Positions 1,445 to 21,673 of a stretch of DNA of 23,803 nt are shown here, piece by piece. The first letter of the stretch is position 1, and the number at the start of each line of letters is the position of its first letter. Both the position numbers and the translations under genes were made by a program. This DNA is from a virus (taxonomy: Duplodnaviria; Heunggongvirae; Uroviricota; Caudoviricetes): IMG/VR virus record IMGVR_UViG_2563366943_000008, positions 1 through 23,803 of that record; one strand, 5' to 3'. The notes below the pieces were generated by a model, which worked only from the letters and a program-made list of their open reading frames with translations, ran no database searches and was not told the DNA's origin.

Positions 1445-1461
1445 TTCAAACATCTCCCCAA

Positions 1462-1608: not shown

Positions 1609-1609
1609 A

Positions 1610-2824: not shown

Positions 2825-2919
2825 AACAACTGGACAAGTATACAGAGGTTTACTAAAGTATAAGGGAGTAGATTGATAAAAACTCACAGAGGATTGCTAT
2901 TTAACAGTTAGCCATGGAG

Positions 2920-3220: not shown

Positions 3221-3542
3221 GCCCACCATGCCCTGAAAAAGGGCGTTCTTTAAAACTACTGGATGTCACGCCTAATAGCGTGATCCTGCCGAAATGCAGG
3301 GTAGCTCTACCCTTGTGGAGCAAACAAACCAAAACAATCTGACTATCTTTTATAAAAGACCGCAATATGTTTTTCATATTGTGGTCTTTGGCGTATTCGA
3401 CATTTGACGCAAATAAAACTCTCGCCATTCGTTGCAGGAGGGGGTTATTGCGTCATTAGTACAGGATATTAATAAATGGCTAATTACAATTCATTAATTC
3501 GTCTCTCTGAAGTTCAAAGGCGAACTGGGTAATGACTCCAAC

Positions 3543-4046
3543 TTATTGATAGTGTTTTATGTTCAGATAATGCCCGATGACTTTGTCATGCAGCTCCACC
3601 GATTTTGAGAACGACAGCGACTTCCGTCCCAGCCGTGCCAGGTGCTGCCTCAGATTCAGGTTATGCCGCTCAATTCGCTGCGTATATCGCTTGCTGATTA
3701 CGTGCAGCTTTCCCTTCAGGCGGGATTCATACAGCGGCCAGCCATCCGTCATCCATATCACCACGTCAAAGGGTGACAGCAGGCTCATAAGACGCCCCAG
3801 CGTCGCCATAGTGCGTTCACCGAATACGTGCGCAACAACCGTCTTCCGGAGCCTGTCATACGCGTAAAACAGCCAGCGCTGGCGCGATTTAGCCCCGACA
3901 TAGCCCCACTGTTCGTCCATTTCCGCGCAGACGATGACGTCACTGCCCGGCTGTATGCGCGAGGTTACCGACTGCGGCCTGAGTTTTTTAAGTGACGTAA
4001 AATCGTGTTGAGGCCAACGCCCATAATGCGGGCTGTTGCCCGGCAT
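3543..4046 (-). CDS. insB: IS1 InsB reading frame (expressed as the InsAB' transposase by -1 frameshift)
   Basis: 167-aa ORF overlapping the 3' end of insA in the -1 frame; sequence matches IS1 InsB. Confidence 0.85.
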
Positions 4047-4240
4047 CCAACGCCATTCATGGCCATATCAATGATTTTCTGGTGCGTACCGGGTTGAGAA
4101 GCGGTGTAAGTGAACTGCAGTTGCCATGTTTTACGGCAGTGAGAGCAGAGATAGCGCTGATGTCCGGCGGTGCTTTTGCCGTTACGCACCACCCCGTCAG
4201 TAGCTGAACAGGAGGGACAGCTGATAGAAACAGAAGCCAC
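3965..4240 (-). CDS. insA: IS1 InsA (transposition repressor / N-terminal part of transposase)
   Basis: 91-aa [43 protein letters not shown], a zinc-finger plus HTH protein matching IS1 InsA. Confidence 0.9.
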
Positions 4241-4304
4241 TGGAGCACCTCAAAAACACCATCATACACTAAATCAGTAAGTTGGCAGCATCACCGGGTG
4301 ATTA

Positions 4305-6410
4305 ATGGCTAAAGCATGGAAAGATGTTATCGCCTCTCCACAGTATCAGGCGTTAGCACCAGAACAAAAAGCGCAGGCTCAGGAGCAATACTTCAATGAA
4401 GTCGTGGCCCCGCAAGCCGGAGAAAGTGTAGCGCAGGCTAAGCAGGCTTTTTATGCTGCCTATCCACTACCATCAACGAATGAAATAGACCGATCCCAAT
4501 CAGCAACTCAAAATATTCAACATACATCATCTGATAATTCTCTTGCGTCAGGGTATGCAAAGTTAGCTACTCAGCAAAGAGAGGGGCTTGAGCGTTCAGC
4601 AGAACAGGGAGCCAGTCTTGGGGCTGCGATGCGCGATGCTATAACAGGCGAAAGCCGAATGACTCCAGAGATGGAGAGACTGCAAAATGTCGACCTTGCC
4701 CCAGAGTTAACCTCACTCAGCATGGGTGCTCTAAAAGCTCGATGGTCTCAACTTTTCGGCTCTGACGCATCTCAGGAAAAGATTCTTCAGAGCATGGGAG
4801 CGAAATTAAGGCAGGATGAGAAGGGTAACACTATCGTTTCCCTGCCATCCGGTGATTATGCTCTGAACAAGCCGGGTTTATCGCCGCAAGACGTGGCATC
4901 GTTTCTGGCTAATGCGCTGGCGTTTACACCAGCGGGCAGGGCTGGAACGGTGCTTGGTGCCATAGGAAAATCAGCAGCTACAGATTTAGCACTACAGGGA
5001 GCCACCAGCCTTGCTGGTGGAGAAGATATTGATCCGTTACAAACGGTAATTTCTGCTGGCATTGGTGGTATTGGTAAGGGGCTGGAAAATACAGCGAGTG
5101 CGGTTTCGAGGGCTGTTCGTGGTGATATGTCGCCTGAAGCAAAGGCTGCTGTCAACTTTGCATCGGAAAGAAATCTGCCGTTAATGACCAGTGACATGCT
5201 GAAAGATAAAACCTTTATGCAGAGTCAGGCTCAGACATTAGGCGAAAGAGTTCCTTTTTTTGGAACCGGTAAGAATCGGCTGAATCAACAACAAGCACGA
5301 GAAAATTTAGTCAGAACATTTAGCGATGGTCTGGGTGGCATTTCTGATAAACAGCTTTATGAATCTGCGACTAAAGGGCAACAAAAATTCATTGAGGCAG
5401 CAGGAAAGCGATATAACCGCATAATTGACGCTATGGGGGATACCCCTGTCGATCTCTCAAACACGGTAAAAGCTATCGACAATCAGATTGCCGTGTTAAG
5501 CCGCCCGGGCAAATCTCAGGATAGAGCCGCGGTAAAAGTCTTGCAGCAATTTAAAGACGATATCACCAGCGGACCAAATGACCTGCGTCTGGCGAGGGAA
5601 AACAGAACCGATCTTCGAAAGCGATTTATGGCGTCATCTGACACTGTTGATAAAGATACGCTCCAGAAAGCCAGCGATATTATCTACAAGGCATATACGG
5701 CGGATATGAAAAAAGCCGTAGCCAAAAATCTTGGAGCAGACGAAGCCATTAATATGGCAAGGGTTGATCGGTCATGGTCTAAATTCAATGACATGATGGG
5801 AAGAACGCGCGTTCAAAAGGCAATAGCCAGCGGTAAGGCCACGCCTGAGGATGTAACAAAACTCGTTTTTAGCCAAAGCCCATCAGAACGTTCTCAGCTT
5901 TACAGGCTTCTGGATGACAATGGTAGGCAAAACGCACGAGCAGCCATAGTTCAGAATGCTGTAGATAAGGCGACTGATCCGTCTGGAAATATCAGTGTTG
6001 AGAAGTTTATTAATGCGTTACACCGGAACAGGAAGCAATCAGCAACTTTCTTTAAAGGCGTACATGGAAAGGAACTGGACGGCGTTATTAAATACCTCAA
6101 CGATACAAGACACGCGGCAAAAGCGAACGTTCAAAACTTAAATGGTCAGCAGCTTTATGGATTGTTAGTTGGTGGTGGCATCATAAACGCAGCAGTATTA
6201 GCGGGGATGCTAAAAACGGCTGCGTTTGTTGTTCCTGCTGCTGGTGCCGTAGGCGGAGCAGCGAAGGCATACGAAAGCCCTGTTATACGAAATGCCTTGT
6301 TACGTCTGGCAAATACGCCAAAAGGTAGCACAGCATATGACAGAGCGATCAGTACGGTCACACAATCGCTCACCAGAGTCGCACAGGCATCACAAAAAGA
6401 AGCTCAATAA
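4305..6410 (+). CDS. large Ala/Gln/Lys-rich helical protein with C-terminal Gly/Ala-rich hydrophobic segment (function unknown; tape-measure-like or pore-forming-toxin-like)
   Basis: 701-aa ORF with consistent coding character. First ATG lies 9 bp after the IS1 end, preceded by an in-frame TGA and no Shine-Dalgarno, so the native N-terminus and promoter may be missing. About 37-residue hydrophobic stretch LYGLLVGGGIINAAVLAGMLKTAAFVVPAAGAVGGAA near the C-terminus. Confidence 0.5.
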   Translation: MAKAWKDVIASPQYQALAPEQKAQAQEQYFNEVVAPQAGESVAQAKQAFYAAYPLPSTNEIDRSQSATQNIQHTSSDNSLASGYAKLATQQREGLERSAEQGASLGAAMRDAITGESRMTPEMERLQNVDLAPELTSLSMGALKARWSQLFGSDASQEKILQSMGAKLRQDEKGNTIVSLPSGDYALNKPGLSPQDVASFLANALAFTPAGRAGTVLGAIGKSAATDLALQGATSLAGGEDIDPLQTVISAGIGGIGKGLENTASAVSRAVRGDMSPEAKAAVNFASERNLPLMTSDMLKDKTFMQSQAQTLGERVPFFGTGKNRLNQQQARENLVRTFSDGLGGISDKQLYESATKGQQKFIEAAGKRYNRIIDAMGDTPVDLSNTVKAIDNQIAVLSRPGKSQDRAAVKVLQQFKDDITSGPNDLRLARENRTDLRKRFMASSDTVDKDTLQKASDIIYKAYTADMKKAVAKNLGADEAINMARVDRSWSKFNDMMGRTRVQKAIASGKATPEDVTKLVFSQSPSERSQLYRLLDDNGRQNARAAIVQNAVDKATDPSGNISVEKFINALHRNRKQSATFFKGVHGKELDGVIKYLNDTRHAAKANVQNLNGQQLYGLLVGGGIINAAVLAGMLKTAAFVVPAAGAVGGAAKAYESPVIRNALLRLANTPKGSTAYDRAISTVTQSLTRVAQASQKEAQ

Positions 6411-6429
6411 CTGGTTAGCCATGGATGGC

Positions 6430-7044
6430 TTAGATATCTCTGCTGTCTCCATTAGGAAATAAAAGATAATATGGATTTGCCTTTCTTGCTCTCCTTGCTT
6501 CACCCGGATACCTGTTAGTCAGTAGCTTGCATAATGAGCAGAGAACAACACTCAAGAAAATTCCGAATGAGAAGATCAATATCTCACCAAAAATCAATGG
6601 CGATATTAAATTTTCAGGATTTAATGATAAGTCAATGTTAAAAACATATTGAGCAATACCAGTAAGTATCAATAATATAATCCCTATGGAATACATTGCT
6701 GTTTCCCAAACATCAGACAGTCTATTTTTGAATTGTTCGCTGGAGTAGTAGTTTGTTATAAAGTCAGAAAAATCACTCTCATATGCATCATCTTTAGGTG
6801 ATGTTAGAAATCCTCTGTCTCTCCATACCTTCTCCCAATTAGTCGATTCTTTTTTTAAGGAAAAATAAATATGTATTCCCAAAAGGATAGCCAAAATTGG
6901 TGTTAGCTCTAAAAAATAGAATGTTATGGAATAAATAATACTGCCATGTTCAAACTCATCTGGGACTATCATGTATGCACAAAAATAAATTGAAAAGTAC
7001 ACCATGCAGATAGTTAGCAATTCTTTAGTATCTTTTCTGCTCAC
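6430..7044 (-). CDS. integral membrane protein, 4 predicted TM helices (candidate immunity / abortive-infection membrane protein)
   Basis: 204-aa ORF with GTG start at 7044 and AAGGGGG Shine-Dalgarno upstream. Four long hydrophobic helices with a charged central loop. Very AT-rich compared with the adjacent 701-aa gene. Convergent with that gene, with a 19-bp gap containing a palindrome. Confidence 0.6.
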   Translation of the reverse strand: MSRKDTKELLTICMVYFSIYFCAYMIVPDEFEHGSIIYSITFYFLELTPILAILLGIHIYFSLKKESTNWEKVWRDRGFLTSPKDDAYESDFSDFITNYYSSEQFKNRLSDVWETAMYSIGIILLILTGIAQYVFNIDLSLNPENLISPLIFGEILIFSFGIFLSVVLCSLCKLLTNRYPGEARRARKANPYYLLFPNGDSRDI

Positions 7045-7498
7045 ACCAACCCCCTTTAGCGTTGTTTAGAATGGCAATCATCATATATCCAAGACATGGC
7101 ATTTGGTACATAGCTTGGGTCGGGATTTCAAGTCCGCTCCCAGTTGATGGGGCCGTTACAGTACGCGCATATCCGCTTTATGTGAAACAGGAAGATTTTT
7201 CTGATATCACTGCCACAGCAAAACACCAATTTCGTGACCAGTACGCGCGCGAGGGGTATCAGTTGCAAAATTTTTTGCAACTGCGTCCGACCAGTACGCA
7301 CACGATGGCGGGGGATACCATAAAACTGTTCTCTACATGAGACAGAGTGGTGGTGATGTGTTGATTATCGGCGTATATGCGCACAGGACGCGCTATGACG
7401 ATGTTTTATGCGGGTACACCAATCACATGTATCTGGTGTGATAAATCGCGTTACATGACCTCTCATGTTGTGCTGGTGGTTATCACGACTTTCTGAAT

Positions 7499-7542
7499 CT
7501 GGCCTTTGCCTGATATTTTGCGACAAGTACGCGCGCGTAGCA
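7499..7542. repeat. dispersed repeat with alternating CG core (copy A)
   Basis: CTGGCCTTTGCCTGATATTTTGCGACAAGTACGCGCGCGTAGCA. Partial relatives at 7231-7253 (TTTCGTGACCAGTACGCGCGCGAG) and 7283-7303 (CCGACCAGTACGCACACGA). Confidence 0.6.
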
Positions 7543-7565
7543 TCGACAGCATACACATTGGATAT

Positions 7566-7787
7566 TCATTTTGTGACCAATGCGATAAGTAGCGGGATAA
7601 GAATTGATAAAATCAACAGGCCGATGATCCACTTTTGATTTTCACTGGCCTTATCTCTATTTTCATCAATCTTATCAATAATTCGACGCTCCAATCCGTG
7701 CATATCACCGCGAATGGCAATCATCTCATTGCGAACATCAGGGAAGTGGTTGGCTTGATGTTCAATGTGTGGCGTTCTGCCTTTCAT
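7566..7787 (-). CDS. small protein with N-terminal coiled-coil and single C-terminal TM helix (XhlA/holin-like architecture)
   Basis: 73-aa ORF; C-terminal WIIGLLILSILIPLLIALV is a clear TM segment. Architecture resembles small prophage membrane proteins. Not verified by homology. Confidence 0.4.
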   Translation of the reverse strand: MKGRTPHIEHQANHFPDVRNEMIAIRGDMHGLERRIIDKIDENRDKASENQKWIIGLLILSILIPLLIALVTK

Positions 7788-7866
7788 ATCTGATCCTCAC
7801 CTATCGTCACTACCTGCTGGTGTATAAAGGTATTGGCCCAAGCAACTTTCCAATGGGCACTCATGT

Positions 7867-8322
7867 TTATACGCTGACCTTACAATCAATCACTGCTTTT
7901 AGCTTTTCAGCATTGCTTCCCTGACGCTTCCACGCGCTGTAAATATCTTTATCCCACGCTTTACCAGCTTTTGTTTGATAGCCTGCTTCATTGATCCGTT
8001 CAGCTATCACACGCCCATTATCAAATCCCTGTTGGATGGTATCGGCAATGATCTTTATAACTGCCGTTTCGTTATATGGTTTTGGTGGGATGTTCGGCTT
8101 TCCGGCAATAAGCGACGCAGCGGCTTTTTCCATGCGCTCCACCAGCCCAAGCATTCGTGAATCAATAGACTTTTCCGGCTGCCCCAGCTTCATGCGAATC
8201 GCATCAACAAGCCAGGAGGTTTTATCTCCTCCAGAAGCGAGAACAGACCGATTAAACTCATCCTGCAATTCAGATGGGATGCGGAACGCGACCAGATTAG
8301 ATTTGCTCATTGCAAAGACCAT
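7867..8322 (-). CDS. putative ribbon-helix-helix DNA-binding regulator with C-terminal extension
   Basis: 151-aa ORF. N-terminus NLVAFRIPSELQDEFNRSVLASGGDKTSWLVDAIRMKL fits a beta-strand / helix / helix RHH pattern. A palindromic operator-like sequence lies immediately upstream. An alternative start at 8310 (MSKSN) is possible. Confidence 0.5.
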   Translation of the reverse strand: MVFAMSKSNLVAFRIPSELQDEFNRSVLASGGDKTSWLVDAIRMKLGQPEKSIDSRMLGLVERMEKAAASLIAGKPNIPPKPYNETAVIKIIADTIQQGFDNGRVIAERINEAGYQTKAGKAWDKDIYSAWKRQGSNAEKLKAVIDCKVSV

Positions 8323-8339
8323 ATCAGTGAGTAATATCC

Positions 8340-8545
8340 ATACAGTATACCACTGTATAACACTGTTATACGCTCAAATATCAGCCAGAAAATAACGGAC
8401 CAATCACAAATCTATCGCTGTGTTGTTGGTTCAGAGCTGGGCTGTGTTGGTTCAAAATGAGTTGATGTTGGTTCAATATTTCAGAAAAAACACAATAAAA
8501 ACAACAATCTTTACAAATTGAACCAACTGAACCAACTGAACCAAC
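8340..8545. promoter_or_regulatory. divergent control region with phased iterons
   Basis: Palindrome GTATAAC-ACT-GTTATAC at 8355-8371. Three direct copies of TGTTGGTTCA at 8424, 8445 and 8467 (spacing 21-22 bp). AT-rich spacer. Three tandem inverted copies TGAACCAAC at 8519, 8528 and 8537. TATAAT at 8563-8568 just before the 8582 start. Confidence 0.55.
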
Positions 8546-8581
8546 ACCTTTTTGCTTATCTATATAATCTGAGAGGCAGAA

Positions 8582-8863
8582 ATGATAAGGGACAGGAAAG
8601 CTGAAGAGCTGGAGTCAAAAGGGCTATACCGGAGAGCTGCCGCACGATGGATGGAAGTCATGCTGTTATGCACCGAGGACGATGATCGGGAATGGATAAA
8701 GCGCCGCCGTGAAACGTGTCTGGAGAACGTGAAGCGCCCGCCCGTGAAGGTTGAGGAATTTGGCGACCTGCATAAAGCTGTTACCGAAACGCAACACCGC
8801 ATGGGGATAGCGCAACCGAACGGTAACGCCTTCCGGTTAAATGGCGGCAAGAGGCAAAGGTAG
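8582..8863 (+). CDS. small transcription-activator-like protein (PerC-family-like, tentative)
   Basis: 93-aa ORF MIRDRKAEELESKGLYRRAAARWMEVM. The N-terminal motif resembles PerC/Pch-type prophage regulators as recalled from memory. Directly downstream of the iteron region. Confidence 0.45.
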   Translation: MIRDRKAEELESKGLYRRAAARWMEVMLLCTEDDDREWIKRRRETCLENVKRPPVKVEEFGDLHKAVTETQHRMGIAQPNGNAFRLNGGKRQR

Positions 8864-8888
8864 ACCACCAGAGGGAAATCATCCTCTG

Positions 8889-8934
8889 GCTGGCGGTTTC
8901 TGGTATTTCGGGACAAGTACGCGCGCGCGTAGCA
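8889..8934. repeat. dispersed repeat with alternating CG core (copy B)
   Basis: CTGGCGGTTTCTGGTATTTCGGGACAAGTACGCGCGCGCGTAGCA. Same orientation as copy A, core GACAAGTACGCGCGCG(CG)TAGCA identical apart from one extra CG unit. Confidence 0.6.
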
Positions 8935-9160
8935 CCCAATCGGTGAGGAAATAGCGGCGACCTGAATGGTCAAAATCACAACGCAGCTATCCCCGTAAGC
9001 AGCGCTTAACGGAATAGCAGTAACCTGAATCCAGTGGGGAGGGGGTAGTCAAATCTCTACAGCCCTGACTATCCGGGACTGCCCGCCCCATCGTTTTTTT
9101 ATACCCGCGAAAAATGAAATTTAATCCGGGCGTGTTTCATTCTTCCAGAGGGTATGACGT

Positions 9161-9346
9161 ATGACACCACGCGAAATAGCCTTATTGACCATCGCCAAAC
9201 TTGAGCACGGAGGCCACCAGCTTACACAGGCAGATCAACGGGAGATAGAACGATCAGTTAATGCCGATATAGCCCGGCGCGACAGGTTCCGCGAAATGAT
9301 GCGAGCACCTGCCTACCAGTGGAAGAAGCCAGCGCCGCGCAGGTAG
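9161..9346 (+). CDS. hypothetical small protein (61 aa)
   Basis: ORF with a GAGGG Shine-Dalgarno-like sequence upstream; no recognisable motif. Confidence 0.3.
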   Translation: MTPREIALLTIAKLEHGGHQLTQADQREIERSVNADIARRDRFREMMRAPAYQWKKPAPRR

Positions 9347-9466
9347 ATATGGGATTATTCCACATGTAACTTATGCGTATTAAGCAAATTTCCTTTATTC
9401 ACCTTTACAGAATTGTGAGTACGTCAGTATCGTTATCCTTCCGATTCGCATTTATTCAGGATTTGC

Positions 9467-10009
9467 ATGTACCAGCTAAAGATAACCATCCGAGACAGCA
9501 AACCACCTATATGGCGGCGTGTGCTGGTTCCAGAGCAAATCCCCTTTAGTAAACTTCATGCCGTGATCCAGTTAGCTTTTGGCTGGAATGACGAACACCT
9601 GTATATGTTCGAGAAAGGGCGTAAAGGTGATCCAGGTAGCGAGTATCGCGTATGGGGTGAGGATGAAAGCATGGGTAACGCGGCAATCACGCCACTATGG
9701 GCGGCGCTCCAGAATGAGGGTGACAAGCTGGTTTACACGTATGACTTTGGCGACTGGTGGGATTGCGTCATTGTGCTGGAGAAGCAAACACACGATACGA
9801 GTAATCAGCCCATTAGCTGCCTGCGTGGGAAAGGCACCACCCCGGCGGAAAACTCAGGCGGCTTGCATGGTTACAATGAATTGCTATTACAGGCCAGAGA
9901 GTCTGATAATCCTGAGCAGGCCGAGATCCACAATTTCCTGATGCTGGATATTGAACGCCGGGTTTACGACCTGAGCCGCATCAACGACAGATTGCAGGCT
10001 ATTAACTGA
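9467..10009 (+). CDS. pRiA4b ORF-3-like family protein (tentative)
   Basis: 180-aa ORF containing YTYDFGDWWDCVI, which resembles the YxYDFGDxWxHxI signature I recall for the plasmid pRiA4b ORF-3-like domain. Confidence 0.45.
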   Translation: MYQLKITIRDSKPPIWRRVLVPEQIPFSKLHAVIQLAFGWNDEHLYMFEKGRKGDPGSEYRVWGEDESMGNAAITPLWAALQNEGDKLVYTYDFGDWWDCVIVLEKQTHDTSNQPISCLRGKGTTPAENSGGLHGYNELLLQARESDNPEQAEIHNFLMLDIERRVYDLSRINDRLQAIN

Positions 10010-10361
10010 CCCGCATGTATTCACCTGATATTGCGTTGTCAGCGCCGCCAGTATCGCGCATAACAGCGCACTGACCGGGTAAACCGTAGCGCACGACCGT
10101 TGCGTTAGTATCACCGCCGCGCCGTATCTGGCGCGATTCATACACTGTCACCCGCTCAAGCAGTCCACCAGCAACCATGCTTTCCAGTGTGCGCCGGGTT
10201 GATTCGAGCTGGTGACGCTTATCGAACGACACCATGCCATGAAGCAGGTAGGCCACACCCGACACATCGAACGGCGGCGCACCAATCTCACCAGTCACCC
10301 ATTCGAGGTTATCCGGTTCAAAGTAGCTAAGTATCTCTTTTTTGCGGCTGGTCATTCTCAT
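10002..10361 (-). CDS. hypothetical protein (119 aa)
   Basis: ORF convergent with and overlapping the 3' end of the 9467-10009 gene by 8 bp; AAGGA-like Shine-Dalgarno upstream of the ATG at 10361. Function unknown. Confidence 0.35.
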   Translation of the reverse strand: MRMTSRKKEILSYFEPDNLEWVTGEIGAPPFDVSGVAYLLHGMVSFDKRHQLESTRRTLESMVAGGLLERVTVYESRQIRRGGDTNATVVRYGLPGQCAVMRDTGGADNAISGEYMRVS

Positions 10362-10480
10362 GGCTGGCTGATTCCTTATTGTGGGATAGCACTATCATAC
10401 AATAAGTGGGTTAAAGGGAGAGCGTTACCGCCTGATATGCTGTATGAATAACAACCAAATTTCAGGGGCGGAAAAAGATA

Positions 10481-10501
10481 TGGGGGTACTTTTGGGGGTA
10501 T
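10481..10501. repeat. second copy of the TGGGGGTAC-N3-TGGGGGTAT motif pair
   Basis: TGGGGGTACTTTTGGGGGTAT at 10481-10501 versus TGGGGGTACTTATGGGGGTAT at 1558-1578: same orientation, one mismatch. Confidence 0.7.
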
Positions 10502-10562
10502 CTATAAAAAATGAACAATAAAAAAGGCAACAAAAACAAAGCTTATCGCCTATGTGTATTGT

Positions 10563-10582
10563 TCCTATTATCGCACAATCAA
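10563..10582. other. degenerate direct repeat of the tRNA-Thr 3' end (candidate attR core of module 1)
   Basis: TCCTATTATCG-CAC-AATCAA aligns with tRNA 3' end TCCTATTATCGGCACCATTCAA (1428-1449): 11/11 identical, then gapped similarity. Lies about 60 bp beyond the second TGGGGGTA pair. Confidence 0.45.
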
Positions 10583-11182
10583 GAAAATCAATAACTTAGC
10601 TTAACTTCTCTAAGAAATTGTATCTTCTGTTATCACTTACAAACGCCTATACGTTGTTATGGGCTTTGGTAGTGTAACACGTATGGGCGAGTAGTTCCCA
10701 GGCTCAACCTCGTAACAAGTTCCTTTGAAGCTGGAAGACGTGCCACCGTCTCTAAACCTTCTACCAAAACTCTTAGCAAGATGTTCCACACCTGGCGCGG
10801 TGTCCAATGATGCTACACGTCGTGAGACGTTGCAGAGGATAAACAGGCTAAATGATGGGAAGAGTTTTAAGTGCAATAGTGGATCAAAGCCCACCTCTTC
10901 AAAACCTAACTTGATCGGGAAAGAATCAAGCTCTAGCACGGTTTCGTCCACCGGAGTACAACGGGTGCCTGATAAGAGAAGAACTGCTAAGACTTCATAG
11001 CTTTTGTGAAAAAGCCCTTTTAGTGGATACGCCTACGGCGCTTATTTTTTGGGGTAGCCCATCAAAGGCGCTTTATGGCTCCTATTGTCTTGAAAATGTA
11101 TCTTTACTTGTATTGTGTTTTATGCGTAGTCTCCCTGTGTAGTATGTAACTTGTTAATTTTCATATGAATACAGAGGCACAC

Positions 11183-11341
11183 GATGAAAAACATTGCAGC
11201 TATCAAACGTAATAACCGCAAGATTCACGCTCGTAAGTTCCTGTCTACGCCAGAAGGAAAAGCCTGGCTAGAGCGTAAACAGAGAGAGAACGAAGAAAGA
11301 AAACTCCTTAATGAGTTGAAATGGCTTAGAGAGGATTTCTG
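11183..11341 (+). CDS. hypothetical small basic protein (52 aa)
   Basis: ATG at 11183 with GAGG 6-9 nt upstream; translation MKNIAAIKRNNRKIHARKFLSTPEGKAWLERKQRENEERKLLNELKWLREDF. Below the ORF-track size cutoff, so found by eye. Coding status uncertain. Confidence 0.25.
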
Positions 11342-12153
11342 AAAATCTCCAGAACGCAACAGGACGCATTCTAACGCTATTTTCATTGCTTGGTATAGGG
11401 ATGTATAGGTGATGTGTGTTTAATGCGTCTGTGCGCTTGTTTTGTGCCTTATTTTGCATTTTCATAATGCAGAAGAGAACACGGAAAACCTTAAAATTAA
11501 TTATTGGGGTATTTAAGGGTATTTTCAGGTGATTTAAGGGTATTAAACTTGATTTAATTGATTAAAATATAAACAGATAGTTGTGTATCTTATTGATTTA
11601 TAAGGTTATTTTTAAATAAAGGTAAATAAAAAATAAATAGCCATAAATAGCTATAAATACATCTAAATACCTATATCCCTTCCCTTATGGCTAGATTGCG
11701 AGAGGTGCTTAACGCGATTTTCAGCGCCCCCCGATCTGGAAAATCCAGAATCCCCAAATATCAGCAAGGAATTTTCTTGCGTAATCAACATCGTTTTTAC
11801 CTATTAAATCATTACACAGAAAGCCTTTCTGTAATGTCTCTCACTAAACTTTCACTAAACACGAGAATGATCGGTTTTATGTCGGATCAGATGCTAGAAA
11901 CAGCACCACGTCTCACAAGGACTGTAAGCGATGAAACCAGTGTTTATGCGGGTGCAGGTCAAAATATAGGCCAAAATCAATTTAACATAATAAACGTAAT
12001 ATGCACTAAGGAACACATAGAACGCCTTGAGTTGATGTATCAGGGGAAAAGTGATGGATTTTTTACGTAGGAGCACGAGAGGGCTTCTGTTGACTTTTGT
12101 ATGCTATGAAACATAATTAAAGGTTTTTTTGTTTTTATTGTGTGATGTAGTGG

Positions 12154-13127
12154 ATTACACAGGGGAATAGATTAAATGGTGTTCTGTTTATACAGGTTTA
12201 TTTGTTAGATCAACAATTTGGCATTTCTAAACAGATGTTTGAACGTTGCCAAATGTCTTGACAACACAAGAAAAGGGCTTGCTATGCCACGCATTACACG
12301 AAATAAGGCTGTAAAAACAAAATAAATTTTAAAATTTGCACAAACGAGAAAACTCGTTAAGAAACAAGCAGAACAATTTTTAGCCAACAATTTCTGATGG
12401 TGCTCTGTAGGCCGCACTACACAAGGATTTGCGAAAGTGATGTAAAAGTGAAGAAAGTAAGAATTGCACTTTTAAGCTACTTTTCATTGAATTTTTAGTA
12501 TGGAATTACACAGGAATAAGTTAGGGATATTCTATGATTTACACAGGGAATATAGGGGATTATGGCACACACATAGAAAGGCATTACACAGAGTGAGTGC
12601 TATGTGATGATTGGTAGTAACGGTAGGTCATAGTGAGCTAGGGGGTAGGTCACTGTGAACTACAATAAGACTATTAATAAAACTATATTAGATTATTAAT
12701 TAGATCATAATAATAATATTCTTTATATCTATATATATGATCTTTTGCCTTCCGGCGTTAGCTTCACTCTCTGGCAAGCAGCCTTACTCCGCTACCTTTC
12801 GGGCTTCGTGGCTGGCCCGTTCCGCTCACACCGAAAGCAAAGCGTTACTTTCTTCGTGTAACTTCGTTGGCGGTAACGCCCACGAAGAAATCTATTGCGC
12901 TGTGCGCAGTAAGAGTAATCACCTAACCAATCATACTGATTGCTTATGTGTTAACTCTCTCTAACTCTTAATTACCCTCCTACATTTAATAACTCTGTTA
13001 TTCTCTGTAGTTGTGTAATTACTCGAAGAGAGAGCGGCTAAAGCTCAATTACACTCTGCTTTCCTCGTGTAATTTCACTAAGCCTCAATACAATTTCACT
13101 TCCTACATTCTGTAGTCGTGTAATTGT
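12154..13127. repeat. iteron field flanking an AT-rich tract and GC-rich core (origin-like region)
   Basis: Direct copies of (A/T)TTACACAGG(G/A)AATA at 12154, 12505, 12538 and 12583, plus variants at 12293 and 12417. Inverted copies CGTGTAA(T/C) at 12855, 13012, 13066 and 13117. 17-bp repeat TCTGTAGT(T/C)GTGTAATT at 13004 and 13110. GGTAGGTCA repeats at about 12625 and 12649. Extremely AT-rich tract at about 12660-12745. Confidence 0.5.
12745..12915. ncRNA. candidate structured RNA or single-strand initiation element (strand undetermined)
   Basis: GC-rich patch inside AT-rich DNA. Hairpin CTTCGTTGGCG-GTAA-CGCCCACGAAG (12862-12887; 10 of 11 positions pair, GNRA-type tetraloop). Hairpin CGGGC-N10-GCCCG (12800-12819). 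Long-range complementarity CTTACTCCGC (12783-12792) with GCGCAGTAAG (12904-12913). The overlapping 75-aa ORF has a non-protein-like sequence. Confidence 0.25.
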
Positions 13128-13761
13128 TTTCGGTGGAAAAGCCAGAGGCGACACCGAAAGAGAATTCTGATCTTATTAATCTTATCTATCTTAGTTAATC
13201 TTCTTACTTATCTTACTTACTTTATCTACTTTATTATTAATAATAGCTTTATAAGCTCTCTGTGTAGCTCTCTGACGCAAGAAACAGCATTCAGGAAGGG
13301 AATCACCTTAGAAAAGGTGTTCTTTGCGTCATAATGTGTTTTATGAAGGATTCAGAGGTGTTTCATAACAGGAATGTATAGAGAATACTTTAGGTAATTA
13401 AAAATAAGGGGTCTAAATGCTTCTCTAACAGCATTAAGCAGGGTAGGGAATGGAAACGCATTGCCTACATATAATAAACTCACTACAGGGCTTTACAGGG
13501 CGTTTTATAAAGCGACTCTCTGTTTTATATCTACAATCACCTTTTCATATACCTAACAAATACAAAATAAGCCCCTTAAATAAGCCTCTGGCGAGCTAAA
13601 CAGACATTACATAAGAGAATGTATTGCTTTTATCAAAACTTCGTTAGAACGCGTTTTAGAGCGTTTTAGCGGATAATGAAGAATAGCACTACACAGAAGA
13701 GCACGAATTGCTAAGACAAATTATAACATGCTGAAAAAGATCGATTTTTTCGAAAAGGGTA

Positions 13762-13790
13762 TTGACAAATGTTTCTTTATATGTAATAAT
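13762..13790 (+). promoter_or_regulatory. sigma70-like promoter upstream of the rightward small-gene array
   Basis: TTGACA at 13762-13767, 16-17 bp spacer, TAATAA(T) at 13784-13790. The -35 is embedded in GGGTATTGACA, sharing the GGGTATT motif seen elsewhere in the element. Confidence 0.4.
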
Positions 13791-13903
13791 AGGTATTAGA
13801 GGGACAGAAAAACATTCTTCTCTAAATAATCAAAATCAATGCACTTTGAAGCCGTCAGGCTTGCAAGGTGTTTTATTTCTTTTAACTGAATAAGGAGTTT
13901 TTT

Positions 13904-14092
13904 ATGAAATGGTTTACACCGGAGCACGTCGTAAAGGCATTTAAAAAAGGTGAGCTTACACGCCACCAAATAGTAATGAATCGTAATATGGCAAGGAGTC
14001 GAGGTTATCCAGAGCGAGCAGCTTGCTTCAATGAAGCACTCAAGATTATTGATGAACTAAGAAAAAATGAAAAAGAATCTGAAACAGAGTAA
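13904..14092 (+). CDS. hypothetical small protein (62 aa)
   Basis: ATG preceded by TAAGGAG Shine-Dalgarno at optimal spacing; first gene downstream of the promoter. Confidence 0.5.
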   Translation: MKWFTPEHVVKAFKKGELTRHQIVMNRNMARSRGYPERAACFNEALKIIDELRKNEKESETE

Positions 14093-14111
14093 AGAAGAGA
14101 AGGAGAAAACT

Positions 14112-14282
14112 ATGAGCGAAGCTACAGAAAAGAAAAGACAACCACGCACTTGCTTTCATATTCCTGATGAAGTATTTCAGGTGTTGTTTAAAGAAGCCAG
14201 AAGTAAACGTATCACTGTTACAGATTACATTCTTGATATGTTGAAAAGAGAGGCTGAAACACTCTCAAATAAAAGCAAGTGA
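14112..14282 (+). CDS. putative ribbon-helix-helix (CopG/Arc-like) DNA-binding protein, 56 aa
   Basis: ATG at 14112 with GAAGGAG upstream. RTCFHIPDEVFQVLFKEARSKRITVTDYILDMLK fits strand-helix-helix. The ORF track starts earlier (14067) at an upstream in-frame ATG lacking a Shine-Dalgarno. Confidence 0.5.
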   Translation: MSEATEKKRQPRTCFHIPDEVFQVLFKEARSKRITVTDYILDMLKREAETLSNKSK

Positions 14283-14335
14283 TTTTTATCACCATAGTAG
14301 CGCCATAGAGCGTGATTACATCAAGGAGATTTTTA

Positions 14336-15028
14336 ATGATTAACCAACTAACTTTTACAAAACACTATGACACGTTTGATAATATATCAAAGATTTATTC
14401 TGATAAATTCCCTCAAGGAAAAGATTTAGATCTATTACATATTGTGCTTTATTTTCGATTCCTTAGTTATCAGGAAAACAACCTTAATTGTTATGAAAGT
14501 CACGAAACATTAGCTAAGATTTTTAAGTCTTCACCATCAACAATTAAACGTAAGATAAACGATCTTAAAGAGATGGGATTATTAGAAACATCCCCACATC
14601 CTGATCCGTATATTTCATCTTTGATTTACAATGCTCTCCCTCTCACAGATGCACATATTACTCCCCCAGGAGAATCATCACTCTCTGATCTTTCTGAGGC
14701 AGAAGAAGCACAGGAACAACCTAAAGGCCATAAACAGCCTTCTTTTGATGTTCTTGATGATGATTGGGATACGCCTTTACCCTGGGAGACGGAAGAAACA
14801 CCTGTTTCATCAAGTGAAAAGGTAGCTAATGATAATGAGGAGGATGTGTTAGAGAATTTTGCCTCTCTTATCATCCAGGAGAAACACAAAAGAACAGGAG
14901 GGGCATCATTTATAGAATTTGCAAATTCACTAGCTTGTAGATACGGGCTAAAACGACCAAATGGTATTGAGGCATATTTTTCTAAGCATTACCCAAATGT
15001 ATACGAAGACTTTGATATTCCCTTTTAA
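14336..15028 (+). CDS. putative winged-helix DNA-binding protein with acidic C-terminal tail (replication-initiator / replisome-organiser-like)
   Basis: ATG at 14336 with AAGGAG 9 nt upstream (ORF track starts at 14312). N-terminal segment ETLAKIFKSSPSTIKRKINDLKEMGLLE is a typical HTH. C-terminal third is strongly acidic (DDDWDTPLPWETEETP...EEDVLENF). Confidence 0.45.
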   Translation: MINQLTFTKHYDTFDNISKIYSDKFPQGKDLDLLHIVLYFRFLSYQENNLNCYESHETLAKIFKSSPSTIKRKINDLKEMGLLETSPHPDPYISSLIYNALPLTDAHITPPGESSLSDLSEAEEAQEQPKGHKQPSFDVLDDDWDTPLPWETEETPVSSSEKVANDNEEDVLENFASLIIQEKHKRTGGASFIEFANSLACRYGLKRPNGIEAYFSKHYPNVYEDFDIPF

Positions 15029-17140: not shown

Positions 17141-18169
17141 ATGATTCTAGGTAATGATTACGTTGATTTAGCTCCTCTGTTCTCTGCGCATAGCACTAGA
17201 AATTATCTACTTTCTACTCTCGACTTCACTGATCCGGTGGGCGTTAGTTCTCATAAAGTAGCTGTTTCCCAGCTTGTCGAAAGCAACGAATCTCTCTTTA
17301 ACAAAGAGACAAGCCGTTTTAGTTCTGAACACAATGTTACTAAGCGAGAACAAGGTAAAGAATGGCTGATCGAAATCCCTTACTTCCTGCGTGAAGATGT
17401 GATCCGTCCTTCTGATGTTCAAGGCAAGCGTAAGCCTGGCACTGATTTTCAGGAAACACTCACTGATATTTATGCTGACTATGTTGCTAAACACCACGTA
17501 GCGTATCAGCGTACAAAAGAGAGCGTGCTGGCTGCATCTCTGTTTAGCGGTAAAACTTACACGCCTAAAACTGATGATGTTCTTATCGAGTGGAGCAAGC
17601 TGTTTAACGTATCAGCTATGAAAGCCACTGTGAACGCTTCCAGCACTGACACCACGAAGATTTTTAAAGAATTTGATCAGATTGCTACTGACATTATCGA
17701 AAAAGCACAGAGTCAGGCGGCGGCTGTAGAGCGAATTGTTGTTTTCTGTAAGCCGGAAGCCTTCTCTGCAATTCGATTCTCTGCTGGTATGGCAAACGCA
17801 TTCCAGTATGTAAGCCCACTGGAAGAGGGGAACGTTGTGTATCAGCGTCGTGACCTGCTGCCAGGGGTGACAGCGTTCACTATTCCAGGAACTAACATTG
17901 ATGTTGTTAAACTGGTAGATCCGCTACACCTGGCACATATGACCGCAGACGCTGTAGCTGTGCCTAAATTCTCTAAGGGTAGCGGAATTTATACCAACAT
18001 CTACGGGGCTGCTTCCAGCACCTTTGAACTGATTAATGCCGCTCCTGCTGAGGTGTATAGCTATAGCTATGAATCTTCTCGTGGTGATGCTGTTAACGTT
18101 GTTACAGAGAATAGCCAGATGGTGGTAAACCACGGTGTAGGCTTCTCCGTTCAAATCACTGTTAAATAA
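17141..18169 (+). CDS. putative major capsid protein (lambda gpE-like / HK97-fold candidate), 342 aa
   Basis: Length close to lambda gpE (341 aa). Local resemblance IVVFCKPEAFSAIRFS versus lambda IIVFDPKGWALFRS as recalled from memory. No signal peptide or enzymatic motif. Followed by a strong intrinsic terminator, consistent with a highly expressed structural gene. Confidence 0.4.
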   Translation: MILGNDYVDLAPLFSAHSTRNYLLSTLDFTDPVGVSSHKVAVSQLVESNESLFNKETSRFSSEHNVTKREQGKEWLIEIPYFLREDVIRPSDVQGKRKPGTDFQETLTDIYADYVAKHHVAYQRTKESVLAASLFSGKTYTPKTDDVLIEWSKLFNVSAMKATVNASSTDTTKIFKEFDQIATDIIEKAQSQAAAVERIVVFCKPEAFSAIRFSAGMANAFQYVSPLEEGNVVYQRRDLLPGVTAFTIPGTNIDVVKLVDPLHLAHMTADAVAVPKFSKGSGIYTNIYGAASSTFELINAAPAEVYSYSYESSRGDAVNVVTENSQMVVNHGVGFSVQITVK

Positions 18170-18459: not shown

Positions 18460-19378
18460 TAAGGGGATTTTAAATGTTAGAAATTAACACTTCTAAAATT
18501 AAGAACACAGTAACATTTAGTGTAGATAAAGACAGCTTGAAAAAAGCGAAAGACTCTATTACAGGCTTAAAGGAATTTGCAGAGAATATCAAGCCAGCTA
18601 AGTTAAGGTTTGATAATGTCACTAAAGGCTATAAGAAAGCACAAAGTGAAGTAGACAAGATTGCTCAACAGAAAGCTAAAGCCGAAAAACAGAATCAAAG
18701 AGTACAAGCTGCCGCAGCAAGAGCACAGGCAAGGCAACAGCAACAAATAGCAGCACGTAAAGAGAAAGCAGAATTAAAACTCCTCGATGTGTCAAGCTCT
18801 ATCAGTGCAATGCACCGTCTCTCTGTAGCTGAACAATACAAAGCTATTGCACAGGCTAGAGAAATTGCCCTCCAATATGAAAGAGGCGCTATTAGTCTGG
18901 CACGTATGAATAGCCAGATGAAACGCTTACAACAGCAACAACGTAAGATTAATGGCAACAGAAAAGCACAATTAGCCCCCGTTAAGGGAGGATCAGGGAA
19001 TTCCGCCACTATGGGCGCTCTGTTATTTGGAGGCGCTACGGCTGCTGCTGGCGTGATGGCTGTTAGTAAAGCGTCGGAGTTTGTTAGTAGCAGTTTCGCT
19101 AACGCAGAGACCCAAGGGGAGCTAATCCAACGTGCAAGGCTTGGCGGTGTAGACGTTAACCAGATGTATAATATTACAGAATGGGCGTATAGAAACGGCG
19201 TTGACTCTATGATGGGTGATCAAGGGGCTAGGAAATACCTGGATCAGATGAAAGATGTTAGGGAACGTGCCGCAAAATCCTACAGTGAAGCTGAATTGGT
19301 GAAAGACAAGAAAACCGGAAAATCTGAATGGAAAGGCGGTGATAATGCTATTAATGAACTTCTAAACTGGATTTGCCC

Positions 19379-20284
19379 CTATATTTCCAGACATCTGTTA
19401 TCACTTAACCCATTACAAGCCCGCTGCCGCAGATATTCCCGTGGCGAGCGATAACCCAGCGCACTATGCGGATGCCATTCGTTATAATGCTCGAACGCCT
19501 CTGCAAGGTTCTTTGCTGCCGTTAACCCGTCTGGTTTGGGCATGATACTGATGTAGTCACGCTTTATCGTTTTCACGAAGCTCTCTGCTATTCCGTTACT
19601 CTCCGGACTCCGCACCGCCGTGTTCTTCGGTTCAAGTCCCAACATCCGGGCGAACTGGCGTGTTTCATTAGCCCGGTAGCATGAACCATTATCCGTCAGC
19701 CACTCCACTGGAGACGACGGAAGATCGTTGCCGAAGCGGCGTTCCACCGCTCCCAGCATGACGTCCTGTACTGTTTCACTGTTGAAGCCGCCGGTAGTGA
19801 CCGCCCAGTGCAGTGCCTCACGATCACTGCAGTCCAGCGCGAACGTGACACGCAGTCTCTCTCCGTTATCACAGCAGAACTCGAACCCGTCAGAGCACCA
19901 TCGCTGATTGCTTTCTTTCACGGCCACTCTGCCTGTATGTGCCCGTTTCGATGGCGGTACAGCAGGTTTTCGCTCAAGCAACAGCGCATTCTGGCGCATG
20001 ATCCGGTAAACACGTTTGGCATTGATCGCAGGCATACCATCAAGTTCTGCCTGTCTGCGAAGCAGCGCCCATACCCGACGATAACCATACGTGGGCAGCT
20101 CTCCGATAACATGGTGTATACGGAGAAGCACATCCGTATCATCAGTGTGACGACTGCGGCGGCCATCCATCCAGTCATCGGTTCGTCTGAGAATGACGTG
20201 CAACTGCGCACGCGACACCCGGAGACAACGGCTGACTAAGCTTACTCCCCATCCCCGGGCAATAAGGGCGCGTGCGCTATCCAC
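19379..20284 (-). CDS. insD: IS2 OrfB (InsD) transposase catalytic (DDE) domain; expressed as OrfAB by frameshift
   Basis: 301-aa ORF overlapping insC; sequence matches IS2 InsD. Confidence 0.88.
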
Positions 20285-20607
20285 TTTTTTGCCCGTCCAT
20301 ATTCAACGGCTTCTTTGAGGAGTTCATTTTCCATCGTTTTCTTGCCGAGCAGGCGCTGGAGTTCTTTAATCTGCTTCATGGCGGCAGCAAGTTCAGAGGC
20401 AGGAACAACCTGTTCTCCGGCGGCGACAGCAGTAAGACTTCCTTCCTGGTATTGCTTACGCCAGAGAAATAACTGGCTGGCTGCTACACCATGTTGCCGG
20501 GCAACGAGGGAGACCGTCATCCCCGGTTCAAAGCTCTGCTGAACAATTGCGATCTTTTCCTGTGTGGTACGCCGTCTGCGTTTCTCCGGTCCTAAGACAT
20601 CAATCAT
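20242..20607 (-). CDS. insC: IS2 OrfA (InsC) transposase N-terminal / regulatory protein
   Basis: 121-aa product [53 protein letters not shown] matches IS2 InsC (HTH). Confidence 0.9.
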
Positions 20608-21673
20608 CTGCTCTCCAATGACTAGTCTAAAAACTAGTATTAAGACTATCACTTAAATAAGTGATACTGGTTGTCTGGAGATTCAGGGGGCCAGTCTATA
20701 AACATCGGTGTTATTAACAAAAGCGACCTTAAAAAATTTGCTGATAATCCGGCTGGATTAATTTCTAAGGCTGTTAATGGAATGATGAAAAAAGGGTTTT
20801 CAGACTCCCAAATTGGACAACGTTTAGAAGACCTGGGCGATGATTTGATGCTTACGTCAAAATATTGGCAACGTTCCGTTAAAGATGTACAAGAAAGTAT
20901 TAATCAGCAAAAAGCCTCTGGAAAATGGCTAACAGAAACACAGCAAGACTCTATTGTTAAATTCAGAGAACTAAACAGACAGCTTTCACAGCTTTCTGAT
21001 GCAAGACAAGTAGCATTCGTAGACGGCTTTATGAAATCTCTCGATCCAAAAGTAACGGAAGAGTTTATGAAAAACCTTTCTAATCTCACTCCGTATTTTA
21101 CGAAGCTGGGAGAAGCTACAGGAAGTCTCTTTGAAGCTATTATGAAGATTGTAAACTGGTTTAATCGTAATGATGATAAGACAGATGCTATTCAGAAAAA
21201 TATGGGTGATGCACCGCCATTAAGCAATGAAGGGATGAAACAGAATCTTTCTAATCTCGTTCCTAATCAATATAAAGGCGCTGGCACTGCAACAACTACA
21301 CCTGATAATAGTCATTCTCTCTTTAACACAATTAAGGGATTGCTTTTCGATGATAATTCTTCTGTGTCAGATGTAAAAATGTCAGTCAATGAAGCACCGA
21401 TAACCAATCTCAAACAGGGTGCTTTAAATAATCTTGCAATGACAACTCCAGCTTATAATTTATCTCCTGTGTTTAATCTGAATCCTACATTTGAAGTGGT
21501 AACAGAAGTGCCGCTAACTATCGAATCAGACACCGGACGATTGAGCGATTATGTGGATTTTACAGCGAGAGCAAGTCGGGATAGCTTCTTGAAATCATTA
21601 ACATTAACCAGCTTATCAGGACAATCCAACGGCGGGTAATTCCCGCCATAACATTACAAGGAAAATTATTATT

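Follow-up and report, generated by a model that had tools for sequence, protein, structure and literature searches.

The window analysed here, a stretch of 23,803 nucleotides (nt) recorded as IMG/VR virus sequence IMGVR_UViG_2563366943_000008, contains a gene-free region of 2,561 bp (11343-13903) that forms the left end of an integrative element of about 12 kb, termed element B. The preferred interpretation, to which a probability of roughly 60% is assigned, is that this region serves a satellite of phi92-like bacteriophages as its cis-acting hub, combining a replication origin, a site recognised by the end-forming machinery of the helper phage, and the promoter of an operon. The region has no conserved coding capacity; its tandem iterons co-vary with the initiator protein encoded in cis, a 68-bp block in it is homologous to the terminal repeat boundary of phi92-like phages and occupies that position in their genomes, and the proteins and DNA of the element are related to those of the same phages.

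The window is a part of the Escherichia coli chromosome, being 100% identical to NZ_OZ547117.1, and begins with proA and the tRNA-Thr(CGT) gene thrW (1-1444). Repeats of the tRNA 3' end that resemble attachment (att) sites bound the thrW island at 1427-1446 and 23894-23910, and since a degenerate internal copy lies at about 10564-10582, the island is regarded as two tandem elements. Element A extends from its integrase gene (1610-2824) to about 10550, and element B from about 10564 to 23910, ending just beyond the window, with its integrase gene on the minus strand (22469-23746). Element B directly adjoins thrW in strain KSC64 and in several metagenome contigs. An element-specific sequence in the island is CGCCCCCCGATCTGGAAAATCCAGAATCCCC. 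The gene-free region was found in 756 of 5,426 complete E. coli genomes, and was covered to at least 80% in 237; about 14% of these genomes thus have at least part of it.

The earlier note on this DNA, written from the letters alone, had described 2.9 kb without a convincing long open reading frame (ORF). The lack of conserved coding capacity was borne out, but over the shorter span given above. In the RefSeq annotation no coding sequence lies between 11343 and 13903, the gap being flanked by a 52-amino acid (aa) ORF ending at 11342 and by the next ORF, starting at 13904. The largest ORFs inside the region comprise 127 aa (11687-12070) and 75 aa (12737-12964). Searches of Pfam and PHROG with every ORF of at least 50 aa in the region, including the 127-aa ORF, gave no match. 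The variable sites of the 127-aa ORF are distributed 9:7:8 over the three codon positions and at least eight alleles carry frameshifts or stops in it, and the alleles of 12744-13170 contain indels that are not multiples of three. A decayed coding sequence with protein homology, the finding that the note itself had set against its proposal, was looked for, and neither a Pfam or PHROG match nor codon bias was detected. A search of Rfam 15 at gathering and permissive thresholds revealed no RNA family in the region, the scores being at chance level (E 1.6 and 3.5), and in the whole window the gathering score was reached by tRNA-Thr alone.

Comparison of related loci (numbered below, together with the phage genomes compared, with the prefix L) revealed that the region is a mosaic of universal and swappable segments. 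The universal segments are 10563-11330 (at least 99% identical), 11460-11763 (repeats and the phage-like block), 12390-12510, and 13560-14340 (the promoter region). Swappable are a site at 11330-11450 that can hold a 1.2-kb cassette, the stretch 11763-12148 with two alternative cassettes, and the origin module 12510-13560, whose alternative version is of the L019 type.

The proposed origin consists of the following features.

12622-12662, plus strand: two class-T1 iterons GGTAGGTCAYWGTGARCTA, dyad-symmetric and 22 bp apart, with 19-nt copies at 12622-12640 and 12644-12662.
12660-12739, no strand: AT-rich tract with 12-13% GC, candidate DNA-unwinding element, where the GC skew turns from plus to minus.
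14336-15028, plus strand: O-like replication initiator of 230 aa, with a variable N-terminal winged helix-turn-helix (wHTH) and a shared C-terminal part.

Three matches to the GGTAGGTCAYWGTGARCTA pattern were found, compared to 0.04 expected. When 34 related loci were aligned at the conserved anchor TAACGGTAGGTCA, five classes of tandem repeats were seen to share the position directly 5' of the AT tract.

T1: GGTAGGTCAYWGTGARCTA, 2 copies in the window and 3-5 elsewhere (L007, L008, L027, L029, L053).
T2: CCCCCACAGAAnnCTGTTA, about 5 copies.
T3: CCCCTATCAAnnnTGATA, about 5 copies.
T4: CCTAGGAAATGAnTTCC, 4-5 copies.
T5: GGTCGGTCACGATGACC, 2 copies.

All classes are dyad-symmetric and separated by runs of G or C, and the AT tract directly follows the last iteron in all variants. 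The initiator matches phrog_270, 'replication initiation protein' (1e-9), and Pfam HTH_36; a PDB sequence search with it gave no match. Its N-terminal region exists in classes A, B, C and D, all of which match PHROGs of O-like initiators, and in 19 of 20 loci the iteron class corresponds to the initiator N-terminal class: A is found with T1 (7/7), B with T2 (5/5), C with T3 (4/4) and D with T4 (2/2), while A', 88% identical to A, is paired with the related T5. The C-terminal part is common to most variants; loci with the alternative origin module (L019, L044, L048) also have a different C-terminus. The same kind of pairing extends to a cousin element in Citrobacter freundii, whose initiator is 59% identical to E. 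coli class B and 26% to class A, and which has about nine repeats of the T2 type ahead of the same TGTTACCTATTAGATCA junction. In a Klebsiella cousin the corresponding gap holds 32-bp tandem arrays. No DnaA box (TTWTNCACA) or integration host factor (IHF) site (WATCAANNNNTTR) is present inside 11343-13903; such sites are not obligatory in phage-type origins. The AT tract has GATC sites at 12701-12704 and 12741-12744, as read from the sequence. A Klebsiella cousin (L066, 4394-5083) encodes a Dam-family methylase beside its gene-free region.

Helically phased tandem repeats of about 17-22 bp, an adjoining AT-rich element and a predicted cognate initiator in cis, the traits of an iteron-type origin, are all present. 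The comparison supports the view that the region holds an origin of the lambdoid O/ori style, in which the T1 iterons would be the initiator-specific repeats and from which the element would replicate. The earlier note had also envisaged an iteron origin with an unwinding element, and had pointed to the downstream 230-aa wHTH protein as its partner. The AT-rich tract is as it described, and the co-variation, seen in 19 of 20 loci and again in the Citrobacter cousin, favours the proposed partner. The operative iterons, on the other hand, are probably not those it listed but the 19-nt dyads at 12622-12662, which it had overlooked.

The repeats listed in the note are of the ATTACAC type and form two arrays.

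12154-12592, plus strand: six direct ATTACAC-type motifs (TTACACAGG repeats), by motif count.
12855-13126, minus strand: four inverted ATTACAC-type motifs (CGTGTAAY; CGTGTAAT side), by motif count.

These arrays are real, since ATTACAC occurs 11 times in the window versus 3.0 +/- 2.0 expected, with nine of the 11 within 11811-13124, and TTACACRRG occurs five times versus 0.63 expected. The plus-strand copies are located at 11811, 12154, 12293, 12505, 12583 and 13048, with near-copies at about 12416 and 12538, and the minus-strand copies at 13013, 13067 and 13118, in addition to CGTGTAAC at 12855. Two of the inverted motifs sit in a repeat of ~45 bp, CCTACAT...TCTGTAGTYGTGTAATT. The motifs are direct to the left and inverted to the right of the AT tract, and this mirror layout coincides with the flip in GC skew. 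However, they do not track the initiator class: the positions of the TTACACAGG/CGTGTAAT array are unchanged among variants with iteron classes T1, T2, T3 and T4, and it is therefore not the determinant of initiator specificity. Initiator iterons were ruled out on this ground, DnaA boxes and IHF sites because the motif does not fit their consensus, and integrase arm sites because the array lies more than 1.2 kb from the att core; any role of the array is a matter of conjecture. The alternative origin module possibly carries a variant motif, ATTGCAC, in few copies.

The second part of the proposed hub is the phage-like block.

11696-11763, plus strand: 68-bp block with homology to phi92-like phages at the inner boundary of their direct terminal repeat (DTR), the phage genome end falling between 11709 and 11710.

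It was revealed by a distant-mode search with 11000-14000 as the query against 50,697 phage genomes (2.3 Gb). All 61 phage matches fell on this one spot of the query and came from large phages (about 145-154 kb) of enterobacterial hosts, those examined being members of Stephanstirmvirinae. Positions 11690-11735 (46 bp) are 95.7% identical to 46+ Justusliebigvirus genomes (E 2e-10), and relatives among Klebsiella and Citrobacter phages gave longer, weaker matches. In phi92 the match (318-363) straddles position 343, the end of the annotated left DTR of 343 bp. The last base of phi92 DTR-R aligns to window position 11710, and the genome end reads GGTGCT|TAACGCG, the bar marking the end. The record of Klebsiella phage phi1_175008 begins 344 nt from the same boundary point. 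For BME3, a phage of the same genus, a DTR of 342 bp was determined by PhageTerm (PMC12210895); its record is not arranged from the terminus and was left out of the boundary check.

An ungapped alignment of the island with phi92, Tr1 and the uncultivated virus genome L020 showed a 26-nt invariant core, TTGCGAGAGGTGCTTAACGCGATTTT, followed by a run of C, about 20 variable positions and CCC(C)AAATATC, with flanks that are essentially unalignable. Within the block the island differs from phi92 only at positions that are also variable among the phages, and the limits of the block are those of the phage-conserved sequence TTGCGAG...AAATATCA. The 39 island loci all carry the block, and only one single-nucleotide polymorphism was seen in it. 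In Stephanstirmvirinae both boundaries of the DTR, a repeat of 320-344 bp, are directly preceded by AGGTGCT on the same strand, and this shared motif is therefore tied to end formation, which suggests that one sequence-specific cutter or nickase may serve both phage ends. The boundaries read GAGAGGTGCT|TAACGCG and AAGAGAAGGTGCT|CRAC, the position-1 boundary of phi92 having diverged to AGTAGGCT; the phages compared for this were phi92 (L002/L005), Tr1 (L003), L020 (7030-7055) and L072. A small protein gene at the block is unlikely, because the start codon is not conserved in phi92 and Tr1, no Shine-Dalgarno sequence is present, and the 26 nt are invariant at all codon positions. The earlier note had mentioned a packaging site as a possibility. 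A block of the phi92 genome-end type, which it had missed, does lie 0.9 kb from the iterons, and its use in packaging would be a further step.

Apart from its integrase, the following genes of element B bear on its kinship with the phages.

17141-18169, plus strand: major capsid protein (Pfam Phage_cap_E, 2.5e-14).
18474-19367 and 20698-21639, plus strand: tape-measure homologue of 609 aa, split by IS2 (phi92 gp134, E 1e-30).
21674-22387, plus strand: Dit-like baseplate protein, 60.5% identical over 205 aa to phi92 gp135 (E 7e-82).

The full gene content comprises two small ORFs, the 230-aa wHTH initiator, five unassigned small ORFs, the major capsid protein, the 609-aa tape-measure-like protein, the Dit-like protein and a tyrosine integrase. 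Aligned over its full length, the capsid protein shares 21% identity with phi92 gp124 (E 2e-6, local tblastn). Stephanstirmvirinae, Vequintavirinae and the Pseudomonas Pakpunavirus group have capsid proteins that fall in a single clade (PMC12846349), which explains the tblastn matches of the element capsid protein. The tape-measure homologue is 53% identical to gp134 over the first 66 residues. It is uninterrupted in the contigs that contain L012, L032, L041 and L053, and interrupted in the window by IS2 (19379-20607); because the insertion splits the gene, this copy of the element is probably defective for it, with the cis region intact. At the DNA level, short patches are 86-93% identical to phi92-like phages, including the first 87 bp of the tape-measure gene (18475-18561, 86% identity to the phi92 gene) and 14632-14674. 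Two neighbouring genes of the element, for a 56-aa protein and for the wHTH initiator, match genes 185 and 184, likewise neighbours, in the phi92-like phage inny (E 3e-10 each). The initiator homologue in inny, gp184 (L006, 5914-7017), contains two wHTH repeats and a C-terminal endonuclease-like domain (phrog_681, 4e-18), and inny is the only phage in the collection that has it; instead of initiating replication, it may be a protein of the homing-endonuclease type.

No terminase or portal family was matched by the element proteins in Pfam or PHROG, and five small ORFs remained unassigned. Nor does the gene content correspond to the marker sets of P4-like satellites, phage-inducible chromosomal islands (PICIs), capsid-forming PICIs (cfPICIs) or PICI-like elements (PLEs). 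PICIs are recognised by AlpA and Pri-Rep together with TerS/Ppi/Rpp, cfPICIs by a full head module with terminase, portal and protease, P4 by Psu/Delta/Sid/alpha, and PLEs by a large serine integrase and RepA_N. Judged from its predicted proteins, the content of element B fits a satellite of phi92-lineage phages that belongs to none of the defined satellite families. Capsid homologues with 37-64% identity are present in Citrobacter, Klebsiella, Enterobacter, Cronobacter, Serratia and Sodalis. Cousin elements in Klebsiella, Citrobacter and metagenomes share the same gene order, with a gene-free gap of 1-2.5 kb before the initiator, and element B is therefore regarded as a member of a stable family of compact elements and not as a decaying prophage.

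The third part of the hub, the promoter of the operon, is represented by two features in the universal segment upstream of the genes.

13644-13669, plus strand: two copies of GCGTTTTAGA, found by repeat search, a candidate operator in the universally conserved promoter-proximal segment.
13762-13790, plus strand: candidate sigma-70-type promoter of the rightward operon from 13904, by consensus match only (TTGACA, 17-nt spacer, TG, AATAAT; 11/12).

Taken together, the preferred interpretation would work as follows. Dimers of the element's initiator (14336-15028) would bind the dyad iterons at 12622-12662 via the N-terminal winged helix and open the adjoining tract at 12660-12739, while the shared C-terminal part would presumably recruit a helicase or the replisome. 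An end-forming or packaging nuclease of the helper would recognise 11696-11763 and cut at GGTGCT|TAACGCG. The helper machinery would thereby cut and package the element, which has no recognisable terminase or portal, probably into capsids made of the element's own protein, and the segment 13560-13900 would act as promoter and operator of the rightward operon. A broader proposal is more tentative and is given somewhat less than even odds: that element B and its relatives across Enterobacterales are undescribed satellites of large virulent myoviruses of the phi92/rV5 lineage, that they supply capsid, tape-measure and baseplate-hub proteins as well as an origin of their own, and that the E. coli members have captured the DTR boundary of the helper and so are cut and packaged by its nuclease. 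A literature search found no paper describing element B or a satellite of phi92-like phages.

Several observations weigh against the satellite interpretation. The position-1 boundary of the phages, CTTTTAAGAGAAGGTGCT|CRAC, has no match in the window, and two weak candidates for a second boundary (at about 12400 and 12463) vary among the island alleles; a satellite DTR reaching from 11710 to about 12485 was dropped for these reasons. The wider likeness to the phi92 terminus is weak, with a chain score of 159 versus 89 +/- 25 that is reached by 1 of 100 shuffles. The 26-mer is missing from the Klebsiella and Citrobacter cousins, whose gene-free regions have no match in phage DNA, and across the island alleles the block does not stand out clearly from its flanks in conservation. 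No metagenome contig was found to be circular, to have terminal overlaps or to end at the block, and the literature found documents no function of the block in the phages themselves. On the side of the origin, one locus, L030, breaks the pairing rule, being the sole locus with T1 iterons and a class-B initiator, and part of the association between iterons and initiators could be due to inheritance, because the loci are related and physically linked. L030 is the metagenome contig OIWQ01004002.1, which matches the window at 99.8% identity as far as 14343 and changes class precisely in the N-terminal region of the initiator; natural recombination or a chimeric assembly may account for it.

Two of the alternatives concern the block and leave the rest of the region as an origin with one or more promoters. 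It could be a sensor or regulatory site, at which a DNA-binding protein of the helper or a helper-modified RNA polymerase that works at the left end of the phage genome would act as well, so that replication, excision or gene expression starts only once a phi92-like phage has infected the cell. Any satellite whose helper is virulent needs a means of sensing infection, a single copied DTR boundary suits a binding site better than a full mimic of the concatemer junction, and the phage counterpart of the block is found about 350 bp upstream of the first early gene, where the gene-free DNA is rich in promoters (8 promoter-like sites versus 3.6 expected). Yet neither strand of the block has a good sigma-70 promoter, nothing obvious lies downstream of the island block in either direction except a swappable cassette, and the mapped genome end falls exactly inside the invariant core, which ties the block to end formation; a sensor is consequently considered rather unlikely. 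The block could also be a functionless scar of recombination between island and phage DNA. Other short patches of high identity do occur inside genes (14632-14674 and 18475-18561), the cousin elements in other genera do without the block, and its conservation in the island population does not markedly exceed that of its flanks. It is difficult to reconcile with a scar, however, that the patch is exactly the only stretch invariant among very divergent phages, down to its limits, that the island departs from phi92 only in the phage-variable middle, and that none of the 39 loci has lost the block, even where the cassettes on either side of it differ. This explanation is therefore viewed as unlikely, slightly more so than a sensor.

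The remaining alternatives concern the region as a whole. That it, or a part of it (12740-12905 or 13270-13560), encodes one or more structured non-coding RNAs would suit its length, conservation and lack of genes, as well as the stable hairpin at 12849-12890 and the folding z-scores of -2.4 to -2.5. These z-scores are modest, though, Rfam gave no match even at permissive thresholds, the alleles contain almost no paired substitutions, and swapped modules and tandem repeats are more in keeping with DNA that binds proteins, which makes this explanation improbable. Least plausible of all, with very little probability assigned to it, is that the region represents decayed coding DNA or what remains of a defective prophage. 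This explanation could draw on the 127-aa and 75-aa ORFs and on the damage by insertion sequences elsewhere in this island copy, but neither ORF matches a protein family, the substitutions show no codon bias, frameshifts are common, and the same compact order with its gap recurs in the Klebsiella, Citrobacter and metagenomic cousins.

The region contains further features, most of which are repeats.

11507-11544, plus strand: GGGTATTTAA / TATTTAAGGGTA tandem repeats, 3.7 copies (Tandem Repeats Finder, TRF).
11633-11675, plus strand: 10-bp phased A-tract repeats of the ATAAATAGCC type (TRF: 2.7 copies at 11633-11659).
11764-12147, no strand: swappable cassette, present in this window as a non-coding pseudo-ORF version.
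12390-12510, no strand: segment found in every variant, including those with the alternative origin module (100% aligned, 88-97% identical).
12740-12905, no strand: GC-rich patch with the motif CGTTCCGCTCAC (12818-12829) and a hairpin with a 10-bp stem (12849-12890).
13170-13237, plus strand: CTTATCT/CTTACTTA pyrimidine-rich tandem repeats (TRF).
13273-13331, no strand: imperfect inverted repeat (arms 13273-13291 and 13313-13331) with a terminator-like inner hairpin (13304-13319).

Both tandem repeats on the left, GGGTATTTAA and ATAAATAGCC, had been recognised in the earlier note and were recovered by TRF. The long imperfect inverted repeat is present as well, and its 19-nt arms are 79% complementary. 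The GC-rich structured patch reported there is indeed rich in GC (52-62% at 12740-12860), but it folds only modestly better than shuffled sequences, and the variation among its alleles is too low for covariation. Its motif CGTTCCGCTCAC occurs once per element of the window type and in the Citrobacter cousin, about 90 nt to the right of the AT tract. Counterparts of the left-hand repeats are seen in phages: in Citrobacter phage Tr1 the reverse complement of the first, TACCCTTAAATA, precedes the homologous block by about 100 nt, and phi92 carries ACAAATAAATATCTATGCC at a position comparable to that of the A-tract repeats. The copy number of the latter varies, with one extra unit in L007, L010, L016 and L021. 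The segment 12390-12510 has a weak likeness to the phage genome end (ATTGCACTTTTAAGC) that is not kept among alleles. A further stretch of 32 bp (13386-13417) is 84% identical to the gene-free right end of phi92 (~147.3 kb; E 5e-4 in a local search), with a 22-bp core that is 95% identical. On the minus strand this stretch, like its phi92 counterpart, could encode the end of a short hydrophobic peptide (...LDPLFLIT versus ...LDRLFLIS); both are unannotated.

In L008, L012, L017 and L021 a 676-bp cassette replaces 11764-12147. It begins directly after the last base of the block (...AAATATCA) and encodes a serine DNA invertase of 179 aa (Resolvase 7e-34, phrog_125 2e-55). Recombinase genes recur in the gene-free regions of relatives, namely at 1114-1653 (minus strand) in L012, 2897-3448 (plus strand) in L019, 8904-9455 in L004, 2968-3585 in L066, 4021-4599 in L069 and 264-845 in L073. 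The E. coli proteins are of the serine invertase type (179-183 aa) and are encoded at two alternative insertion points flanking the phage-like block, and those of the Klebsiella, Citrobacter and metagenomic cousins are of the tyrosine type (about 200 aa). The cassettes of this window contain no recombinase gene. Phage phi92 has a resolvase/invertase, gp053, with a weak match to the L012 invertase (32% over 81 aa). These small recombinases might serve in multimer resolution or as an inversion switch.

The left arm of element B (10563-11330) is its most conserved part, being 99-100% identical across all variants. It contains three ORFs without family matches (10637-10951 on the minus strand, 10725-11000 and 11184-11342 on the plus strand), and a site of IHF consensus is located beside the att core at 10586-10598. 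Element A (1610-10550) is a second, unrelated island between thrW and element B, and is missing from the strains in which element B abuts thrW. Besides its own integrase it carries IS1, a DNA ejection protein of the P22-gp16 family (4305-6410), a PerC-family regulator (8582-8863) and a pRiA4b ORF-3-family protein. Among 893 places of the region in E. coli genomes two are plasmid-borne. In one of them, L004 (plasmid NZ_CP126938.1), a copy of a B-like element resides in an IncFIB/FIC conjugative plasmid, next to sopAB; a search of plasmids with the region gave, as the only match, an island copy inserted in an IncF plasmid.

Phages of the phi92 type (Justusliebigvirus, Phapecoctavirus and relatives) are common candidates for coliphage therapy. 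If the element hijacks them, it could affect phage yield, the host range of transduction and the outcome of therapy. The lifestyle of a satellite with a virulent helper, known from the Vibrio PLE, would then extend to E. coli, and the 26-mer with the cut GGTGCT|TAACGCG would be the first defined end-formation signal of the phi92 phage group. Independently of the satellite reading, the data provide a naturally occurring series of matched initiator/iteron specificities, with at least four classes on an otherwise shared backbone, and a precise candidate sequence defining the terminal-repeat boundary in Stephanstirmvirinae.

Among known systems, the origin most resembles lambda ori and its initiator O. 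Both have tandem dyad-symmetric iterons beside an AT-rich tract and a small initiator with an N-terminal winged helix, and in both the N-terminal domain and the iterons change together between relatives over a shared C-terminal part, as is established for the specificity of lambdoid O and ori. In contrast to lambda, the origin of the element is situated about 1.7 kb upstream of the initiator gene and not inside it, no P-like helicase loader is recognisable, the number of iterons ranges from 2 to about 9, and the additional mirror-oriented ATTACAC array flanks the origin.

Satellites of the Staphylococcus aureus pathogenicity island (SaPI)/PICI type and the Vibrio PLE are likewise integrative and encode their own initiator with a matching origin of iterons and AT-rich DNA, whose specificity differs among relatives, and the implied helper of element B would be, as for the PLE, a virulent myovirus. 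The initiator of the element differs from theirs in being a 230-aa wHTH protein without a helicase or primase domain, and the element is set apart from PICIs, cfPICIs, P4 and PLEs by the absence of AlpA, Pri-Rep, TerS, portal, Psu/Sid/Delta and a large serine integrase. A short copy of the helper's genome end on an element without terminase is also found in P4 with the cos site of P2, in cos- and pac-type PICIs and in plasmids carrying the T7 concatemer junction. Here the putative helper is a 148-kb virulent phage with short exact terminal repeats, and the putative packaging site of the element copies the inner repeat boundary only and not the whole junction. With regard to the terminal region of the phi92-like phages themselves, the island has an origin matched to its own initiator and is essentially unalignable outside the block, but it shares with them the 68-bp block with its identical 26-nt core, large gene-free surroundings and a weakly collinear further similarity.

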